Under the pieces are notes generated by a model. That model worked only from the letters and a program-made list of their open reading frames with translations, did no database searches and was not told the origin of the DNA. A stretch of DNA of 64,000 nucleotides from Bdellovibrionales bacterium (GTDB lineage Bacteria; Pseudomonadota; Alphaproteobacteria; UBA9219): contig JBAZNY010000004.1 in NCBI GenBank assembly GCA_041649025.1, forward strand, positions 26,705 to 90,704. Direction: 5' to 3'. Below are positions 9,307-46,930 of the stretch, one piece after another; the first letter of the stretch is position 1; each line of letters opens with the position of its first letter. Both the position numbers and the translations under genes were made by a program.

Positions 9307-10035
9307 TTACGCAGCGCATTTTTCCATCTTTATTGATTTGTCGCTTTGTCGTGTGCTAGGTTCGATGTCGAACGTTTTCACTGCAATTCTAAGATTGTCT
9401 TTAAAACAAAATCCGCCAACGCCGTTTGACAGCAATTCCATAGCCTTCATTCGCATTCCCGGATGAATGTCCGCCGCCCCAGAGTCCTGATAAAGCGGCA
9501 CGTAGCCAGAAATTTCTTCTAACAAAAAGTTCCGTGATAATGATAGCCGCGCGGATCCAAATTCTTCGCCCCTCTTGAGACAACGCTGAGCAAACTCATT
9601 TAAATCATGGTCAACCGCTTCAGAAAACTCTTTGTTATTTTCATAAAGGGCACAAACTCGCTGAAAGACCTCCGGATAGCGCGGATGAGACAGCAGACTA
9701 TCCCATCGAACAACATCGATAAAAACATCAGAAGAGAAAACGTTAGCCTTCAACCATAAATCCCCGTCGTTTAGCGCCTTTTTATAAGCATCTTCTGGAG
9801 ACAGCCCAATAGACATTAAATTGTAACGCTGTATTGTATCGTGCAAACAAAGCGTAACATCGTTGAAATTCTGCATTACCCAATTAAGGATGCTTCTTGT
9901 GCGCGGATCAAAGGTTGGATTAGAGGGCACACTGATTTGCAGGCGCGCAGACGCATATCTCTGCCAGCCCATAGCATGACGCAAAATAATCTTATAATTC
10001 CCACGAGCAACAACTTGATTATTCGTATTTTTCAT
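9307..10035 (-). CDS. Uncharacterised 242-aa protein in AT-rich islet; downstream partner of the HTH protein
   Basis: AT-rich codon usage unlike flanking genes; start overlaps the upstream gene's 3' end by 17 nt (translational coupling); no recognisable catalytic motif. Weak Rx6H (RWDSLLSH) and weak CDPS-like IS..N..F and Y178 patterns were noted but are not convincing. Confidence 0.6.
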   Translation of the reverse strand: MKNTNNQVVARGNYKIILRHAMGWQRYASARLQISVPSNPTFDPRTRSILNWVMQNFNDVTLCLHDTIQRYNLMSIGLSPEDAYKKALNDGDLWLKANVFSSDVFIDVVRWDSLLSHPRYPEVFQRVCALYENNKEFSEAVDHDLNEFAQRCLKRGEEFGSARLSLSRNFLLEEISGYVPLYQDSGAADIHPGMRMKAMELLSNGVGGFCFKDNLRIAVKTFDIEPSTRQSDKSIKMEKCAA

Positions 10036-10657
10036 TTGTGTTAGATCCCTTTGGACTTTTCGCTTGTGACCAAACTAAATCAAAAAAATTCTTATTTGCT
10101 TGTGCAATAGCCTTGTCATGAACAACTATAACTTTCTGAAAATCTTCAGTCAGGTATGCGCATATATCATCAAAAAAAACCGAAGCTGCGTTTTGGTAAT
10201 AACGTGACGGGATTTGACGATACCAATCTAGCGGACCTCGAATATGGTTGTTGCCCTCTTTGATTAGCTTTTTATATTTTATGCCTTTCCTTACAATTCG
10301 CTTAAAAGCTTCATGTACTTCCTGAGGAGAAAGGGACTCATCTGCCATACAGACAAAAAATTCTTCTCCTTTTTGCAACTGATAATAGATTTCATCTAGC
10401 AATAGCGCATAGCAATTTGGGCCATCTATTTCTCGAACTTTATGGTCATAAAGACGAACACCTTGGTTTTCTGTAAATTCAATTCCCTTCTCTCTAAAAA
10501 CTTTCATAATATCCGCAATCGTTCCTTCCCTCGGTTGGACGGAGCCGTCTTCGATTTTGCTGATGCCTTGTTTGGTAAGACCCGCTGCATTGGCCAGATC
10601 GTCCTGGCTCATGTCCAGAAGGGCGCGCGCGGCGCGTATTTGTCTGCCTGTAATCAT
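10019..10657 (-). CDS. XRE-family helix-turn-helix protein with about 145-aa C-terminal domain of unknown function
   Basis: MITGRQIRAARALLDMSQDDLANAAGLTKQGISKIEDGSVQP...GIEF is a canonical XRE HTH; start set at the ATG at 10655-10657 with GGTGG upstream. The ORF-track N-terminal extension is rejected. Confidence 0.7.
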   Translation of the reverse strand: MITGRQIRAARALLDMSQDDLANAAGLTKQGISKIEDGSVQPREGTIADIMKVFREKGIEFTENQGVRLYDHKVREIDGPNCYALLLDEIYYQLQKGEEFFVCMADESLSPQEVHEAFKRIVRKGIKYKKLIKEGNNHIRGPLDWYRQIPSRYYQNAASVFFDDICAYLTEDFQKVIVVHDKAIAQANKNFFDLVWSQAKSPKGSNTNEKYE

Positions 10658-10854
10658 CCTAACCACCAAATCCAAAAAGTGTGCACTGCACCAAAAGCGT
10701 ATTAGGGATACTATATATATATGAAAGTAAATCAATGTCAATTTATAGTAGACAAAAGTCTCTTTTTCGGGTATAACTCATATATAGATAGGGCAATTAT
10801 ATTCAGGTTATTGATTTTAAAGGATTTTTTCGAATCTATTTTGGAGAAGACGGA

Positions 10855-14456: not shown

Positions 14457-14518
14457 GATACCCGTCTGAGATTATTCACCCTGCCCTTTTGGGGCGGAAT
14501 CAACAGACGAGGTATACA

Positions 14519-15962: not shown

Positions 15963-17423
15963 ATGTCAATAGCTGGCGCTCTTTCCGTCGCTCTCTCGGG
16001 GATGCAGGTAAGTTCCACGGCCGTGCAAACCATATCGGGAAACGTTGCCAACGCCCAAACGGCTAATTATACCCAAAAAAATATCAGCCTGGCACCCGTC
16101 ACTACGGGATCGTCGTTGGGTGGCGTCACGATCACAGGCTATACCCGCGTGACGAACGACGTCCTTTTTACGACGCTTAATAACGCGACATCGGACGCTT
16201 CTTATTACAGCACTCAGAGCAACTATCTTAGTCAAGTCCAGTCAATCCTTAATTCAATCGGCAATCCTCCCGCGCTTTCCGGAGACTTGGGCGATTTTCA
16301 GGCGGCTTGGACGCAGTATGCCGCCGACCCCAGCAACTCCACATTGGAAAAAAACGTCGTCTCCACAGGACAAGCGCTTGCGAACACGATCAGCAGCATC
16401 GCTGCGGATATTTCGACTTTGGAAACAAACACTAAAAACGATCTTTCAACGTCAATTTATTCGCTGAATTCCACTTTGAAGACAATTCAGGAGTTGAACA
16501 TTCAAATTACCTCGGCTCTTTCCAATAATCAGCCGACCGTCAATCTGGAAGATGAGCGTGACACCGCGATTAACATGATCGCTTCGTTCACGAATGTCGT
16601 CGTCATGCAGCGCGATAACGGGCAAATTGCGCTTTATACTCCCACCGGCACAGCCCTTCTCGACCATCAAGCGCAGACTTTCAACGTCGGCCCGGAAGGC
16701 AACACCGTTGTCAATTCCGCAGGATCCGATATCACAGATTCATTAGCGGGCGGGACATTACAGGCTCAAACCGATTTTCTTGCTTCGACAGCAACCGCTT
16801 CCAACGGCGTCGGGGTTATCGTAAAATTAAAATCCCAGTTGCAGAATTTCGCCAACATGTTCGTCGCAACAACGGCGGACGGAAACAGTTTCGCGGACGT
16901 CTATAACGCCGCCGCCACAGAAGCCGGCGAACAGGCATCGAGTTTCTTCACTGCAAATGTAGATTTTAACGGCTTGCCGAATCTGACAAGTTTTTCCGTC
17001 AATGCCGACCTTATCAGCGGAGCGACAACCGTTAAGTCGGCGGCTGCCGTTGATATCAACGACGCTTTTTCCGCAACGGATATTGCCATTACGACGACGG
17101 ATATGGGCGGCGGCGTTTTTACCTATAATACAAGCAGCACGTTTTCGTCGGATGGCCTGATAACTCAATCGCAAACTTATTCCGGCATTGTTACGGCAAT
17201 ATTGTCCGGATTCCAACAAGCGGCAAACACCGTTAAAGCCCAATATGAAACGGCTGCAACACAACAAGAATATTATCAAAGCTCTCTCTCCAGCCAAACG
17301 GGCGTTAATACGGACACCGAGCTGGTCAATCTGACCAATTGGGAAAATAGCTATGCCGCGTGCGCGCACTTAATTTCAACGATTAAAGAAATGATGAAAA
17401 TACTGGAAGGCATGGTGACCTAA
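15963..17423 (+). CDS. flgK: Flagellar hook-associated protein 1 FlgK
   Basis: N-terminus LSGMQVSSTAVQTISGNVANAQTANYTQK; C-terminus NLTNWENSYAACAHLISTIKEMMKILEG matches the FlgK terminal helices. Confidence 0.8.
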   Translation: MSIAGALSVALSGMQVSSTAVQTISGNVANAQTANYTQKNISLAPVTTGSSLGGVTITGYTRVTNDVLFTTLNNATSDASYYSTQSNYLSQVQSILNSIGNPPALSGDLGDFQAAWTQYAADPSNSTLEKNVVSTGQALANTISSIAADISTLETNTKNDLSTSIYSLNSTLKTIQELNIQITSALSNNQPTVNLEDERDTAINMIASFTNVVVMQRDNGQIALYTPTGTALLDHQAQTFNVGPEGNTVVNSAGSDITDSLAGGTLQAQTDFLASTATASNGVGVIVKLKSQLQNFANMFVATTADGNSFADVYNAAATEAGEQASSFFTANVDFNGLPNLTSFSVNADLISGATTVKSAAAVDINDAFSATDIAITTTDMGGGVFTYNTSSTFSSDGLITQSQTYSGIVTAILSGFQQAANTVKAQYETAATQQEYYQSSLSSQTGVNTDTELVNLTNWENSYAACAHLISTIKEMMKILEGMVT

Positions 17424-18400
17424 TGAGCATAACGTCCATCAGCAATTTAAGTATTGTAAGGAACTTGACGTCAGCGCTTCAAAATCAGCAGTTATCCTTG
17501 TCCGAGCTGTCCAGCCAGCTTGCGACCCAGAAAAAACATACCGATTTGACGGATTACAGCGCCAACGATGCCCGTAATTTGATCGATCTGCAAGCCGCTG
17601 GGACACAATGCGATGCGTATATCAGCGTCATTGCAACCGCAAGCACAAATCTGTCCATTTATGACACGATCATGACGGATTTGGAGGAAATCATTTCTCA
17701 AGCGCAAAGCCTTGCAAACAACAACCCGACCTACACCGAGGACATTGCCTCAAACGTCCTTATACAAACCAATAATTATTTGAAATCCGTTACCGTCGAT
17801 CTTAATCAAACGATCAACGGGCGCTATATTCTTTCAGGATCCCGCTACAACACACAGCCCGTTCAGGATTTGTCCGCGCTTCCTTTATCTACTCTCGACA
17901 CAACCATTTATACCGATAATTTGACTTTGCCGAGTTACGATACGGAATTCGTCGAGGGCGCAGGTTCGACAAGCGCTACCGCATACACCACGGATCGGGC
18001 GATGATTGACGATGGATATATCGTCGATTATGGCATTACCAGCAACGACCCCGCTATTCAGAAGGTTGTCATGGGGCTGCGTTATCTGCAGGCGGCAGGA
18101 AATTCCACCGACACCGCGACTTATAAAAGCAACATGACCCAGGCTTCCACATTGCTGGCTTCCGGGTTGGCTCAAATCCAGAATTTACACACGAACATAG
18201 CGAACAATGTTAACGTGATGGCTATGGAAAAAGAGGCTCAAAAAACAGAAATTTCAAATTTAACGGATCGAGTCTCAAATATTCAGCAGGTTGATACGAC
18301 GGAGATCGCGATCAAAATAACCTCGTTTCAGTCCGTTCTTCAAGCTTCCTACTCTGCGACGGGAAGCATATTAAAAATGTCGATTGTAAATTATCTCTAG
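17423..18400 (+). CDS. flgL: Flagellar hook-associated protein 3 FlgL
   Basis: Flagellin-like N- and C-terminal helices; 325 aa; immediately follows flgK with TAATG overlap. Confidence 0.75.
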   Translation: MSITSISNLSIVRNLTSALQNQQLSLSELSSQLATQKKHTDLTDYSANDARNLIDLQAAGTQCDAYISVIATASTNLSIYDTIMTDLEEIISQAQSLANNNPTYTEDIASNVLIQTNNYLKSVTVDLNQTINGRYILSGSRYNTQPVQDLSALPLSTLDTTIYTDNLTLPSYDTEFVEGAGSTSATAYTTDRAMIDDGYIVDYGITSNDPAIQKVVMGLRYLQAAGNSTDTATYKSNMTQASTLLASGLAQIQNLHTNIANNVNVMAMEKEAQKTEISNLTDRVSNIQQVDTTEIAIKITSFQSVLQASYSATGSILKMSIVNYL

Positions 18401-44412: not shown

Positions 44413-44497
44413 GTAACTAACCCGGGGTGCCCCCTTGACTGGGGGCTGAGATTATACCCGTAGAACCTGATCTGGGTCATGCCAGCGAAGGGAGAGG
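44413..44497 (+). ncRNA. TPP riboswitch (THI-box)
   Basis: ACUAACCCGGGGUGCCC..GGCUGAGAUUAUACCCGUAGAACCUGAUCUGGGUCAUGCCAGCGAAGGGAGAGG matches the conserved GGGGUGCC, CUGAGA, ACCUGAUCUGG(A/G)U(A/C)AUGCCAGCG and AGGGA blocks; the SD GGGAGAGG sits in the 3' pairing region. Confidence 0.9.
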
Positions 44498-44499
44498 TC

Positions 44500-45525
44500 A
44501 TGAGCGGCGATGCGCGCCTGTGTTCGCGTACAAATTCTACATCTTTTTGCCGAAGTTTCTTCGATTCCCCGCAACCTGCGGGGCGCAAAATTACGGCGGG
44601 ATTTACGTACCTGCAGCGCATCGGAAAAGCGGCGACTTATGACGTCTGGTTTCCGGAAGATTTGCGGCAAGAGCTTGATGCGCGATTGGCTCGCGGACAG
44701 CAAATCGGCGCGGAACATTTTGCCTCGCAATGGGCGGCAGTGCGCCAATTCGAGCTGTTGCATGAGTCCGGCAATCATAAAATTTACGATCTCGATCCCG
44801 AGTTGTTACAACGGGCGATGCTGGATCTCTCTCGCAGCATGCGCGCGGGAGGATACCGCATTACAGTAGCCACATTGGGCCGTTATGAAGAAACGAGTTC
44901 CGGCGATGAGCTTGAAATTCTTGACCATCATTTGCAGGAAGGCATCGCGCAGATGATTCATATGCTTTACCTCGAGGAAGAGAGCGCGAAGGCGAACGCC
45001 GAAAATGACGCGCACCTCTATACCAGCCAGTGGGATTATTGTCAGGACTTGCCGCACATAGGGATGGTTTTAGGAGCCGGAGACGTATTCCAAAGGTATT
45101 CTGACAACACGGAAGAATACATTCTGCCTAAGCGCAGGAAAAAAGGCGAAAAAAAAGGCGGCACAGGCACAATCTCGCCTGCCGCCAAACGGCATAAACT
45201 GGCGCGGCAGTTTTTCGATATTCTCAATAAGCTGCCCCAAAACCATATCGTTCACGACACAGCCGTGGGTTTGCAATTGCCGGAATTGAACGGCGAAAAC
45301 CAATGGAACTATATTGCCGATTCCGAAGAGACGCTGCTTTCTTTCAATCGTGTGCTGAGCAACATATTCGACAAATTCGACGGCGTTAATTTGGCGCGCC
45401 TGAACGGGGATGAAAACGCACGCGATGAAATTAAGGCATCCACCCTTCATATGCGCGGATATGGAGACCGCATGAACGAAAGCAGCGAAGGATTTTATCG
45501 CCGCGCGTCGTTGGCGTTAAACTGA
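44500..45525 (+). CDS. Uncharacterised 341-aa soluble protein under TPP-riboswitch control
   Basis: ATG at 44500 is 2 nt after the SD GGGAGAGG. The upstream ATG at 44479 lies inside the riboswitch conserved block, so it is rejected as the start. Lys-rich linker PKRRKKGEKKGGTG; no recognisable Thi-enzyme motif. Confidence 0.6.
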   Translation: MSGDARLCSRTNSTSFCRSFFDSPQPAGRKITAGFTYLQRIGKAATYDVWFPEDLRQELDARLARGQQIGAEHFASQWAAVRQFELLHESGNHKIYDLDPELLQRAMLDLSRSMRAGGYRITVATLGRYEETSSGDELEILDHHLQEGIAQMIHMLYLEEESAKANAENDAHLYTSQWDYCQDLPHIGMVLGAGDVFQRYSDNTEEYILPKRRKKGEKKGGTGTISPAAKRHKLARQFFDILNKLPQNHIVHDTAVGLQLPELNGENQWNYIADSEETLLSFNRVLSNIFDKFDGVNLARLNGDENARDEIKASTLHMRGYGDRMNESSEGFYRRASLALN

Positions 45526-45550: not shown

Positions 45551-45656
45551 AAGAAAATGGGATGCCCGCCTGCGCGGGCATGACGGTAGTTATTGTTGAA
45601 CCTTTTTCCAAAATACGCCGTCACACCCGCGAAGGCGGGTGTCCCATTTGGTTTTT
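45551..45656 (+). repeat. Inverted pair of REP-like hairpin repeats (copy C 45551-45588 forward; copy D 45626-45656 reverse)
   Basis: C: AAAAAGAAAATGGGATGCCCGCCTGCGCGGGCATGACGG. D on the reverse strand: AAATGGGACACCCGCCTTCGCGGGTGT. In both, the stems differ from copy A by paired compensatory substitutions. Confidence 0.7.
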
Positions 45657-45673: not shown

Positions 45674-46288
45674 TTATGTTTTAGTTGTTTTTGTCATCGC
45701 CTGCGCGGCCTCTTTAAGCCCGACAGCCAAATCTTCATTGTCGCGGAAGGTATACGCGCCATAGCTGATGGTAATATTCAGCTCGCAGTCATGGACTTTT
45801 GCCAGAGCTTGCTGAAGGCTGGCAGAGAGCGTTTCGGCCTTGCGCCACGCAAAGGTATTATCGCATCGCATCAACAATACGCCAAACTCATCCGGAGCAA
45901 GACGCCCTGTGATGTCCGATGTGCGTACGCCGCGCGTCAAAACGTTTGCAATCTCCCGCAAGGCGGCATTTGAAACGGCGCGGCCAAAACGCTGGGTCAC
46001 TTCGTCGATGCCTTCGAAATCAAAATACAAAATGCTCGACATGCCACCATAGCGCTCATCAAACGCCAACATGCGGGCAACTTCGCGGTTGAAGTCGATG
46101 CGATTGAGGACGGTGGACTCTTTCTCGCCATCCTGTTTTTCATATAGCCGGAGTTTTTCCAGAAGCTCCTGATTTTTGGCTTGCGTCGAAGCCAGTTCGC
46201 CGCGCAGCAGATTCCATACGCGCCGCTGATCGCCGGTCAACGCCGCATCGGCCAATGGGTCGACCGAAAAATCAAAGGATTCTGCCAT
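45674..46288 (-). CDS. Stand-alone degenerate GGDEF-domain protein (RLAPDEF in place of GGDEF) with N-terminal coiled coil
   Basis: Block FDERYGGMSSILYFDFEGIDEVTQRFGRAVSNAALREIANVL..TGRLAPDEFGVLL aligns to the GGDEF domain core with the active-site GG replaced. Confidence 0.6.
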   Translation of the reverse strand: MAESFDFSVDPLADAALTGDQRRVWNLLRGELASTQAKNQELLEKLRLYEKQDGEKESTVLNRIDFNREVARMLAFDERYGGMSSILYFDFEGIDEVTQRFGRAVSNAALREIANVLTRGVRTSDITGRLAPDEFGVLLMRCDNTFAWRKAETLSASLQQALAKVHDCELNITISYGAYTFRDNEDLAVGLKEAAQAMTKTTKT

Positions 46289-46405: not shown

Positions 46406-46930
46406 ATGGCTCAAATTAAAGCAAAAACATCTCAAAAACCCGTTGTCGGCGTCATTATGGGAAGCCAGTCGGACTGGGAAACGATGCAAAACGCAACAAA
46501 GATTTTGGCCGACTTTGGCGTGCCTTTCGAAGCCAAGATCATGTCGGCGCACCGCACCCTGCCCCGCGTTACGGAATACGGAAGTTCGGCCAGCGCGCGC
46601 GGCCTTAAAGTCATCATCGCAGGCGCAGGCGGCGCAGCCGCGTTGCCGGGAGTTCTTGCCGCCTTGACGATAGTGCCGGTCTTGGGCGTGCCGATGCAAA
46701 GCAAACTCCGCGACGGCCTTGACAGTTTGCTGTCGATGGTTCAAATGCCCGGAGGAATTCCGGTCGGGACACTCGCGGTAGGCAATGCGGGCGCAAAGAA
46801 CGCCGCCTTGTTGGCCGTATCCATTCTTGCGTTAAGCGACGCCAAATTGGCGGCAAAGCTTAACAAGTGGCGCACGGCACAGGCAAAGGCCGTTGTCGAA
46901 AAACCGTCCAACGCCAAAAAGAAAAAGTAA
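46406..46930 (+). CDS. purE: N5-carboxyaminoimidazole ribonucleotide mutase
   Basis: [15 protein letters not shown] and SAHRTP PurE signatures; 174 aa. Confidence 0.92.

Follow-up and report, generated by a model that had tools for sequence, protein, structure and literature searches.

A TPP riboswitch conserved ahead of an orphan gene family in uncultured Alphaproteobacteria suggests a thiamin-related, probably redox, function

Canonical thiamin synthesis has been argued by Hanson, Rodionov and colleagues to have no missing enzymes, and unknown genes linked to thiamin pyrophosphate (TPP) riboswitches are therefore expected in salvage or detoxification (PMC11223231). Dedicated reductases have been predicted in thiamin salvage, and the salvage and repair of many thiamin breakdown products are still without enzymes (PMC11223231). 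OarX, a short-chain dehydrogenase/reductase (SDR), and FmnO, a flavin mononucleotide (FMN) monooxygenase, are encoded by genes of unknown function that a conserved TPP riboswitch links to thiamin, are suspected of redox salvage or repair, and are patchily distributed (PMC11223231). Here, a further gene under a TPP riboswitch is described from a 64-kb stretch (64,000 nucleotides, referred to as the window) of contig JBAZNY010000004.1 from a metagenome-assembled genome (MAG) labelled 'Bdellovibrionales bacterium'. The open reading frame (ORF) at 44500-45525 (+ strand, stop codon included) predicts a soluble orphan protein of 341 aa, which has 159 homologues and matches no profile or fold in the PDB.

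Scanning the whole window with Infernal and Rfam detected a single TPP riboswitch, at 44413-44512 on the + strand, directly upstream of this ORF. It matches the full RF00059 model (positions 1-105) with a score of 70.1 bits, above the gathering score of 54.3 (E 9.6e-12), and the last 12 nt of the match lie inside the ORF. The THI-box blocks on which a preliminary description of this stretch had based its call of a TPP riboswitch are all present, with GGGGTGCC at 44424-44431, CTGAGA at 44447-44452 and ACCTGATCTGGGTCATGCCAGCGAAGGGA at 44465-44493, and the call was borne out. The segment is a bona fide TPP aptamer and, by family membership, would be expected to respond to TPP.

The aptamer and the translation initiation region overlap. 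In the Infernal alignment to the RF00059 consensus structure, helix P1 pairs UAACC (44418-44422) with GGUCA (44496-44500), and P4 is closed by the AGG of the conserved GAAGGGA, which supplies the P4 3′ strand. The 3′ strand of P1 runs from the last two bases of the Shine-Dalgarno (SD) sequence through the spacer to the first base of the ATG (44500), which is the final P1 nucleotide. The SD sequence GGGAGAGG (44490-44497) is therefore divided between the 3′ strands of P4 and P1, consistent with its earlier placement in the 3′ pairing region. An in-frame ATG further upstream, at 44479, falls in a conserved loop of the aptamer and is not used by the homologues. There is no sign of an intervening terminator between the aptamer and the ORF, and no room for one.

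This geometry fits the translational control by TPP that had been proposed for the gene and would correspond to an OFF-type switch. When TPP is plentiful, the aptamer would fold and lock the SD sequence and the A of the AUG into helices P4 and P1, preventing ribosome loading, and when TPP is low the 3′ strands would be free and the 341-aa protein would be made. As TPP binding would block initiation, the protein is expected to be produced only when TPP is scarce. The arrangement shares its aptamer family, full-length match and covariation in P2-P5 with the E. coli thiM-type TPP riboswitch, a translational OFF switch of RF00059, and hiding of the ribosome-binding site by TPP would likewise be expected here. 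However, the leader in the window lacks an anti-SD helix and any expression platform apart from the aptamer, whose own P4 and P1 3′ strands include the SD sequence and the A of the AUG. The RNA is best classed as an ordinary RF00059 member with an unusually compact platform.

Helices P2-P5 carry compensatory changes across 26 homologous leaders, including double compensatory changes at 7 of the 16 consensus pairs, and one P5 pair is UA in 14 of the sequences and CG in 12. The length of P3 varies, and the cores CUGAGA and ACCUGAUCUGG...GCGAAGGGA are invariant. Judged by these substitutions, the aptamers of the relatives differ from each other and are not mere copies. Minimum free energy folding of the leader alone did not recover the aptamer (z 0.24).

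The pairing of riboswitch and gene is conserved. A scan of one genome per species yielded 26 loci, two of which are cut at the 5′-end of the gene. RF00059 was found directly upstream in all of the remaining 24, where the upstream DNA is intact, with scores of 54.6-75.4 bits, and in each of these leaders GCGAAGGGAG precedes the start codon by 5-10 nt. The SD sequence and start codon lie inside the aptamer 3′ strands in the window and in every homologous leader, and the use of these strands as the expression platform is therefore a family trait. RF00059 is also located ahead of the distant members P0130 (36% identity) and P0170 (26% identity), and ahead of two metagenome loci; the metagenome scan, made with divergent members, yielded 3 loci. 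One arrangement (L039/L040, 4739-6993) contains two divergent paralogues in tandem, P0139 followed by P0155, with a single TPP riboswitch before the first. The linkage thus appears to have been kept through divergence of the protein to about 26% identity. Since TPP riboswitches respond to TPP, this is among the strongest functional labels that can be obtained by purely computational means, and the earlier view of the gene as a strong functional lead holds well beyond the single locus from which it was drawn.

The 341-aa protein has no Pfam or NCBIfam match at E<=0.01 and no PHROG match. When 59 aligned members were compared with Pfam at E<=10, only scattered noise was obtained, with no consistent match and no thiamin family. 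This noise included Frankia_peptide, which was seen in 12 of the 59 members with a best E of 0.0011. A relationship to FolD, the best match among PDB sequence profiles, was judged to be due to chance (E 0.098). All 159 homologues found at E<=1e-3 are annotated as 'hypothetical' and derive from MAGs. An exhaustive search of 1.84 billion cluster representatives with a hidden Markov model found 60 clusters at 50% identity, and the family is therefore small. No match was found in PLSDB plasmids using tblastn, and no published description of the family was found in the literature searched.

The highest mean Kyte-Doolittle hydropathy over 19 residues is 0.47, and the protein therefore has no membrane helix, in agreement with the preliminary description; with a pI of 5.8, it is predicted to be soluble and cytoplasmic. 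The two acidic halves joined by a Lys-rich linker that had been pointed out there were only partly upheld. The Lys-rich stretch PKRRKKGEKKGGTG is real (residues 210-223; 45127-45168, + strand), but it is variable in the alignment and modelled with low confidence (predicted local distance difference test, pLDDT, of 53-59 across residues 201-220). In relatives it is deleted, short, Lys/Gly-rich or replaced by an insertion of ∼90 aa. The halves are neither repeats nor features of the family, and an internal duplication was rejected (hhalign probability 0.4%). The insertion is a conserved feature of a long form of the protein (400-430 aa; for example P0053, P0086 and P0097), where it occupies columns ∼268-352 of alignment A1, equivalent to 45115-45183 in the window, and it has no Pfam match.

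AlphaFold modelling with 36 close homologues alone gave an unusable model (pLDDT 53.8), and addition of the distant members gave one with a pLDDT of 80.8 and a predicted template modelling score of 0.73. In this model, an antiparallel sheet (strands 29-40, 45-50, 78-88, 117-129 and 250-259) is packed with helices. A structural search of the PDB found no significant neighbour, and the model points to a new, unassigned family with a fold that has no solved relative. The polar residues conserved in the family are R29, Q39, R40, W50, W78, R82, E85, E89, N92, R115, R120, Y129, D136, D142, S162, W178, H186, H252, D253, H317 and R319, and there is no conserved Cys in the family alignment. They include three His (H186, H252 and H317) and several carboxylates, and the predicted sheet has a conserved surface rich in Arg and Trp.

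The statement that the product is not a known thiamin enzyme or transporter component agrees with negative results from Pfam, NCBIfam, PDB sequence profiles and the fold search. Profiles for ThiC/D/E/F/G/H/L/M/N/O/S, TenA, TenI, YlmB, THI4, THI5 and YkoF in Pfam and NCBIfam gave no match, and no fold in common with a solved enzyme of thiamin synthesis or salvage was found. Control by a TPP riboswitch and a cytoplasmic location are shared with THI5/NMT1, ThiG, ThiD, TenA and YkoF, which are of similar size, but there is no similarity to any of these in sequence profile or structure. Features of thiamin transporters (ThiBPQ, ThiT and other energy-coupling factor components, PnuT, ThiV, CytX, TonB receptors) are also missing, with no membrane segment or signal peptide and no match to an ABC, ECF or SBP profile.

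In the logic by which a function can be proposed, the nearest analogue is OarX/FmnO, where the tie to thiamin likewise comes from a conserved TPP riboswitch; a suspected redox role in salvage or repair and a patchy distribution are also shared. However, OarX and FmnO have known folds and are clustered with thi genes, whereas the family described here is without a profile or fold match, is solitary in every case and was seen only in uncultured Alphaproteobacteria. Neither an SDR Rossmann fold nor an FMN monooxygenase is indicated, as Pfam and NCBIfam gave no match and the structural search gave no neighbour of Rossmann type.

The only hint of the chemistry comes from a further group of homologues. 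In a neighbour-joining tree, P0156, P0165, P0169, P0180-P0182, P0148 and P0153 form one clade that is sister to all TPP-controlled members. In L031/32 (L031 4862-7171), L037 (153-2148), L044-46 (L044 6889-8858) and L047 (3745-5721), the gene abuts, or is located no more than ∼15 nt after, a gene for a PvcA/DIT1-like protein of 365-379 aa. With 26.6 bits for a cut-off of 26.4, and over about 110 of 273 model positions, the PvcA/DIT1 match is marginal; the PvcA-like family is small and divergent, with 19 known relatives of which several carry PF05141. A BFD-type [2Fe-2S] protein with a CxC...CxxC motif follows the family gene in L031/32 and in L036 (6001-7109). In L030 (803-2000) and L038 (6001-7262), the gene that overlaps the stop codon encodes a [2Fe-2S] ferredoxin of the thioredoxin-like type (NF041613, E 2e-13 to 4e-16). 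The stop and start codons of the family and ferredoxin genes in this clade overlap or abut.

Sites resembling the Fur box were found in the promoter regions of this clade by consensus matching only and were the best of their loci, with 16 of 19 positions in L031, two sites at 15 of 19 in L037 and 13 of 19 in L036; L044 and L047 have similar AT-rich operators. The sister-clade genes may form an iron-regulated small-molecule or redox module. In the isonitrile/formamide synthase and oxygenase pairs PvcA-PvcB, IsnA-IsnB and DIT1-DIT2, the oxygenase partner occupies the place that the sister-clade member takes, coupled to the PvcA/DIT1-like protein. A [2Fe-2S] electron carrier is located downstream of the sister-clade member. 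Unlike the partners in these systems, the family member has neither the profile nor the fold of an Fe/2-oxoglutarate dioxygenase or P450, and the clade in the window has no PvcA-like neighbour. A PvcA-like partner elsewhere was also considered, and none was found in the rest of the window or in the main-clade loci. As two unrelated types of ferredoxin are coupled to one family, electron-transfer chemistry is indicated, and the family probably carries out ferredoxin-linked redox chemistry.

We propose, with a probability of roughly one in two, that the product is an enzyme that raises the supply of thiamin or TPP, is repressed by TPP, and acts through salvage, repair or support of synthesis, probably by ferredoxin-linked redox chemistry. 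The thiamin-related part of this proposal draws on the regulation of the gene and on precedent, and the redox part on the translational coupling of sister-clade homologues to [2Fe-2S] ferredoxins. The likeliest roles of the product would be to salvage or repair a thiamin moiety that is damaged or partial, or to support or replace an Fe-S-dependent step (ThiC or ThiH). The second of these roles would link the TPP control of one clade with the Fur control of the other. A ferredoxin-linked redox enzyme fits the expectation set out for genes of this kind (PMC11223231).

Several observations weigh against this proposal. No TPP riboswitch was found upstream of the sister-clade members, and the leader of P0147, a separate outlier, gave nothing even in a permissive scan (E<=1), which was made on that leader only. 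With the sister clade tied instead to Fur-like boxes, a PvcA/DIT1-like protein and ferredoxins, the chemistry of the fold is not intrinsically that of thiamin. The thiamin-related lead given in the preliminary description stands as a prediction from regulation, and the sister clade points to redox chemistry rather than to a thiamin-specific fold. No thi gene is found beside the family gene in any locus, or anywhere in the window, and there is therefore no guilt by association beyond the riboswitch. No ferredoxin gene adjoins the family gene in the TPP-controlled clade, and no catalytic motif or cofactor site was recognised in the protein.

A narrower form of the proposal, which we advance tentatively, is that the protein is a ferredoxin-dependent metalloenzyme of new fold for a thiamin reaction without an assigned enzyme. 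This could be the reductive salvage of an oxidised damage product of thiamin, its thiazole or its pyrimidine, or an Fe-S-sparing replacement of ThiC or ThiH, and such a replacement would explain how clades have switched between a TPP riboswitch and Fur-type iron control. No relevant description of a ThiC-independent route was found in the literature searched.

Expression at low TPP only, as an OFF-type riboswitch would give, is also what would be expected of a TPP-sparing bypass, in which a TPP-independent, ferredoxin-linked enzyme replaces a TPP-dependent reaction when TPP is scarce. B12 riboswitches control the B12-independent MetE or ribonucleotide reductases in a parallel manner, the solitary position of the gene with no thi neighbours would suit such a role, and the ferredoxin coupling of the sister clade suggests electron transfer, as in 2-oxoacid oxidation. 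However, we know of no TPP riboswitch that controls a bypass enzyme, and none was found in the literature searched. A protein of 341 aa with no recognisable cofactor site would be an unlikely substitute for the large TPP enzymes, and the sister clade is paired with a PvcA-like enzyme of secondary-metabolism type and not with central metabolism, leaving the bypass doubtful.

Next in likelihood, and also improbable, is that the product is an iron or redox homeostasis protein, with a core role in iron or electron supply and only an indirect tie to thiamin. ThiC and ThiH depend on Fe-S metabolism, and TPP control could have been acquired because these Fe-S radical S-adenosylmethionine enzymes are the main clients; this explanation overlaps in part with support of synthesis in the proposal above. 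The Fur-box-like sites that score highest in L031, L037 and L036, the AT-rich operators of L044 and L047, and the BFD-type and thioredoxin-like [2Fe-2S] partners of the sister clade are in its favour, but no Cys is conserved and no metal site can be recognised in the protein, and the Fur boxes were assigned by consensus matching only. Least likely is a non-catalytic protein that binds an anionic aromatic ligand (a thiamin phosphate or nucleotide) or nucleic acid, and serves in storage, chaperoning or the control of translation or transcription during thiamin starvation.

Working out what the protein catalyses could give vitamin B1 metabolism both a new enzyme and a new fold, and could link the regulation of thiamin with that of iron. 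It could also explain how widespread uncultured, possibly predatory (Micavibrio-like) Alphaproteobacteria cope when B1 is scarce. The leader would also serve as a clean, naturally occurring case of a minimal riboswitch whose aptamer doubles as the expression platform.

The hosts were considered from the labels of the sequences. Among the sequences found, the family was seen only in uncultured Alphaproteobacteria. An identical entry among the homologues carries the label 'Bdellovibrionales bacterium', and the labels of the other sources read Alphaproteobacteria or Rhodospirillaceae. The gene order lptFG-pepA-holC-folC in the window and all of the relatives are alphaproteobacterial. Given these labels, and as the alphaproteobacterial predator Micavibrio is placed under Bdellovibrionales in the NCBI taxonomy, the hosts are probably Micavibrio-like Alphaproteobacteria, and this placement probably also explains the label of the source MAG.

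Clustering of neighbouring genes across the 26 loci recovered only lineage-specific synteny. In the lineage of the window, the family gene is preceded by pepA, holC, folC and an AraC-family regulator gene and followed by a convergent GGDEF gene, purE and a tRNA gene; in other lineages, purA or a deaminase gene is found near it. A conserved operon partner was looked for in the TPP-controlled clade and rejected, as only this synteny (folC, holC, pepA, the AraC-family gene, GGDEF, purE, purA and the deaminase) was seen. The second gene downstream of the 341-aa ORF is purE (46406-46930, + strand; PF00731, E 7.7e-60), which predicts a 5-aminoimidazole ribonucleotide (AIR) carboxylase and is found again near the family gene in about 6 related loci. 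ThiC also uses AIR as its substrate, and the proximity of purE is probably just lineage synteny.

As the neighbours differ between lineages and the next gene, the GGDEF gene at 45674-46288, is convergent, the riboswitch serves the 341-aa gene alone. Downstream of this gene, a possible terminator hairpin (CACCCGC-GAAG-GCGGGTG, 45624-45641, + strand) is followed by a T-rich tract and may end a monocistronic transcript. It was not called in a scan for consensus terminators because the T-run begins too far from the stem. Between the convergent genes, a perfect 8-bp GC-rich palindrome at 45562-45581 (ATGCCCGCGCAGGCGGGCAT on the − strand) precedes a T-run and resembles a terminator for the GGDEF gene.

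Three further regions of the window contain genes of note. Two ORFs on the − strand, at 9307-10035 and 10019-10741, comprise a 242-aa ORF with a weak match to cyclodipeptide synthases (PF16715, 31.7 bits against a cut-off of 27) beside an HTH_3 regulator, and the 242-aa ORF is upstream of two tRNA genes. The segment 49204-53283 includes a Znu-type metal ATP-binding cassette transporter (an ABC-3 permease and ZnuA); after these come a MetA-pathway-like protein, putatively of the outer membrane, and a regulator of the Fur family that is probably Zur. A flagellar hook cluster, with flgE at 14489 and flgK at 15963, surrounds a 325-aa ORF (17423-18400, + strand) that has no Pfam match at E<=1e-5. 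It is located between flgK and a pair of genes for tetratricopeptide repeat and methyltransferase-regulatory proteins, and possibly encodes a divergent FlgL.
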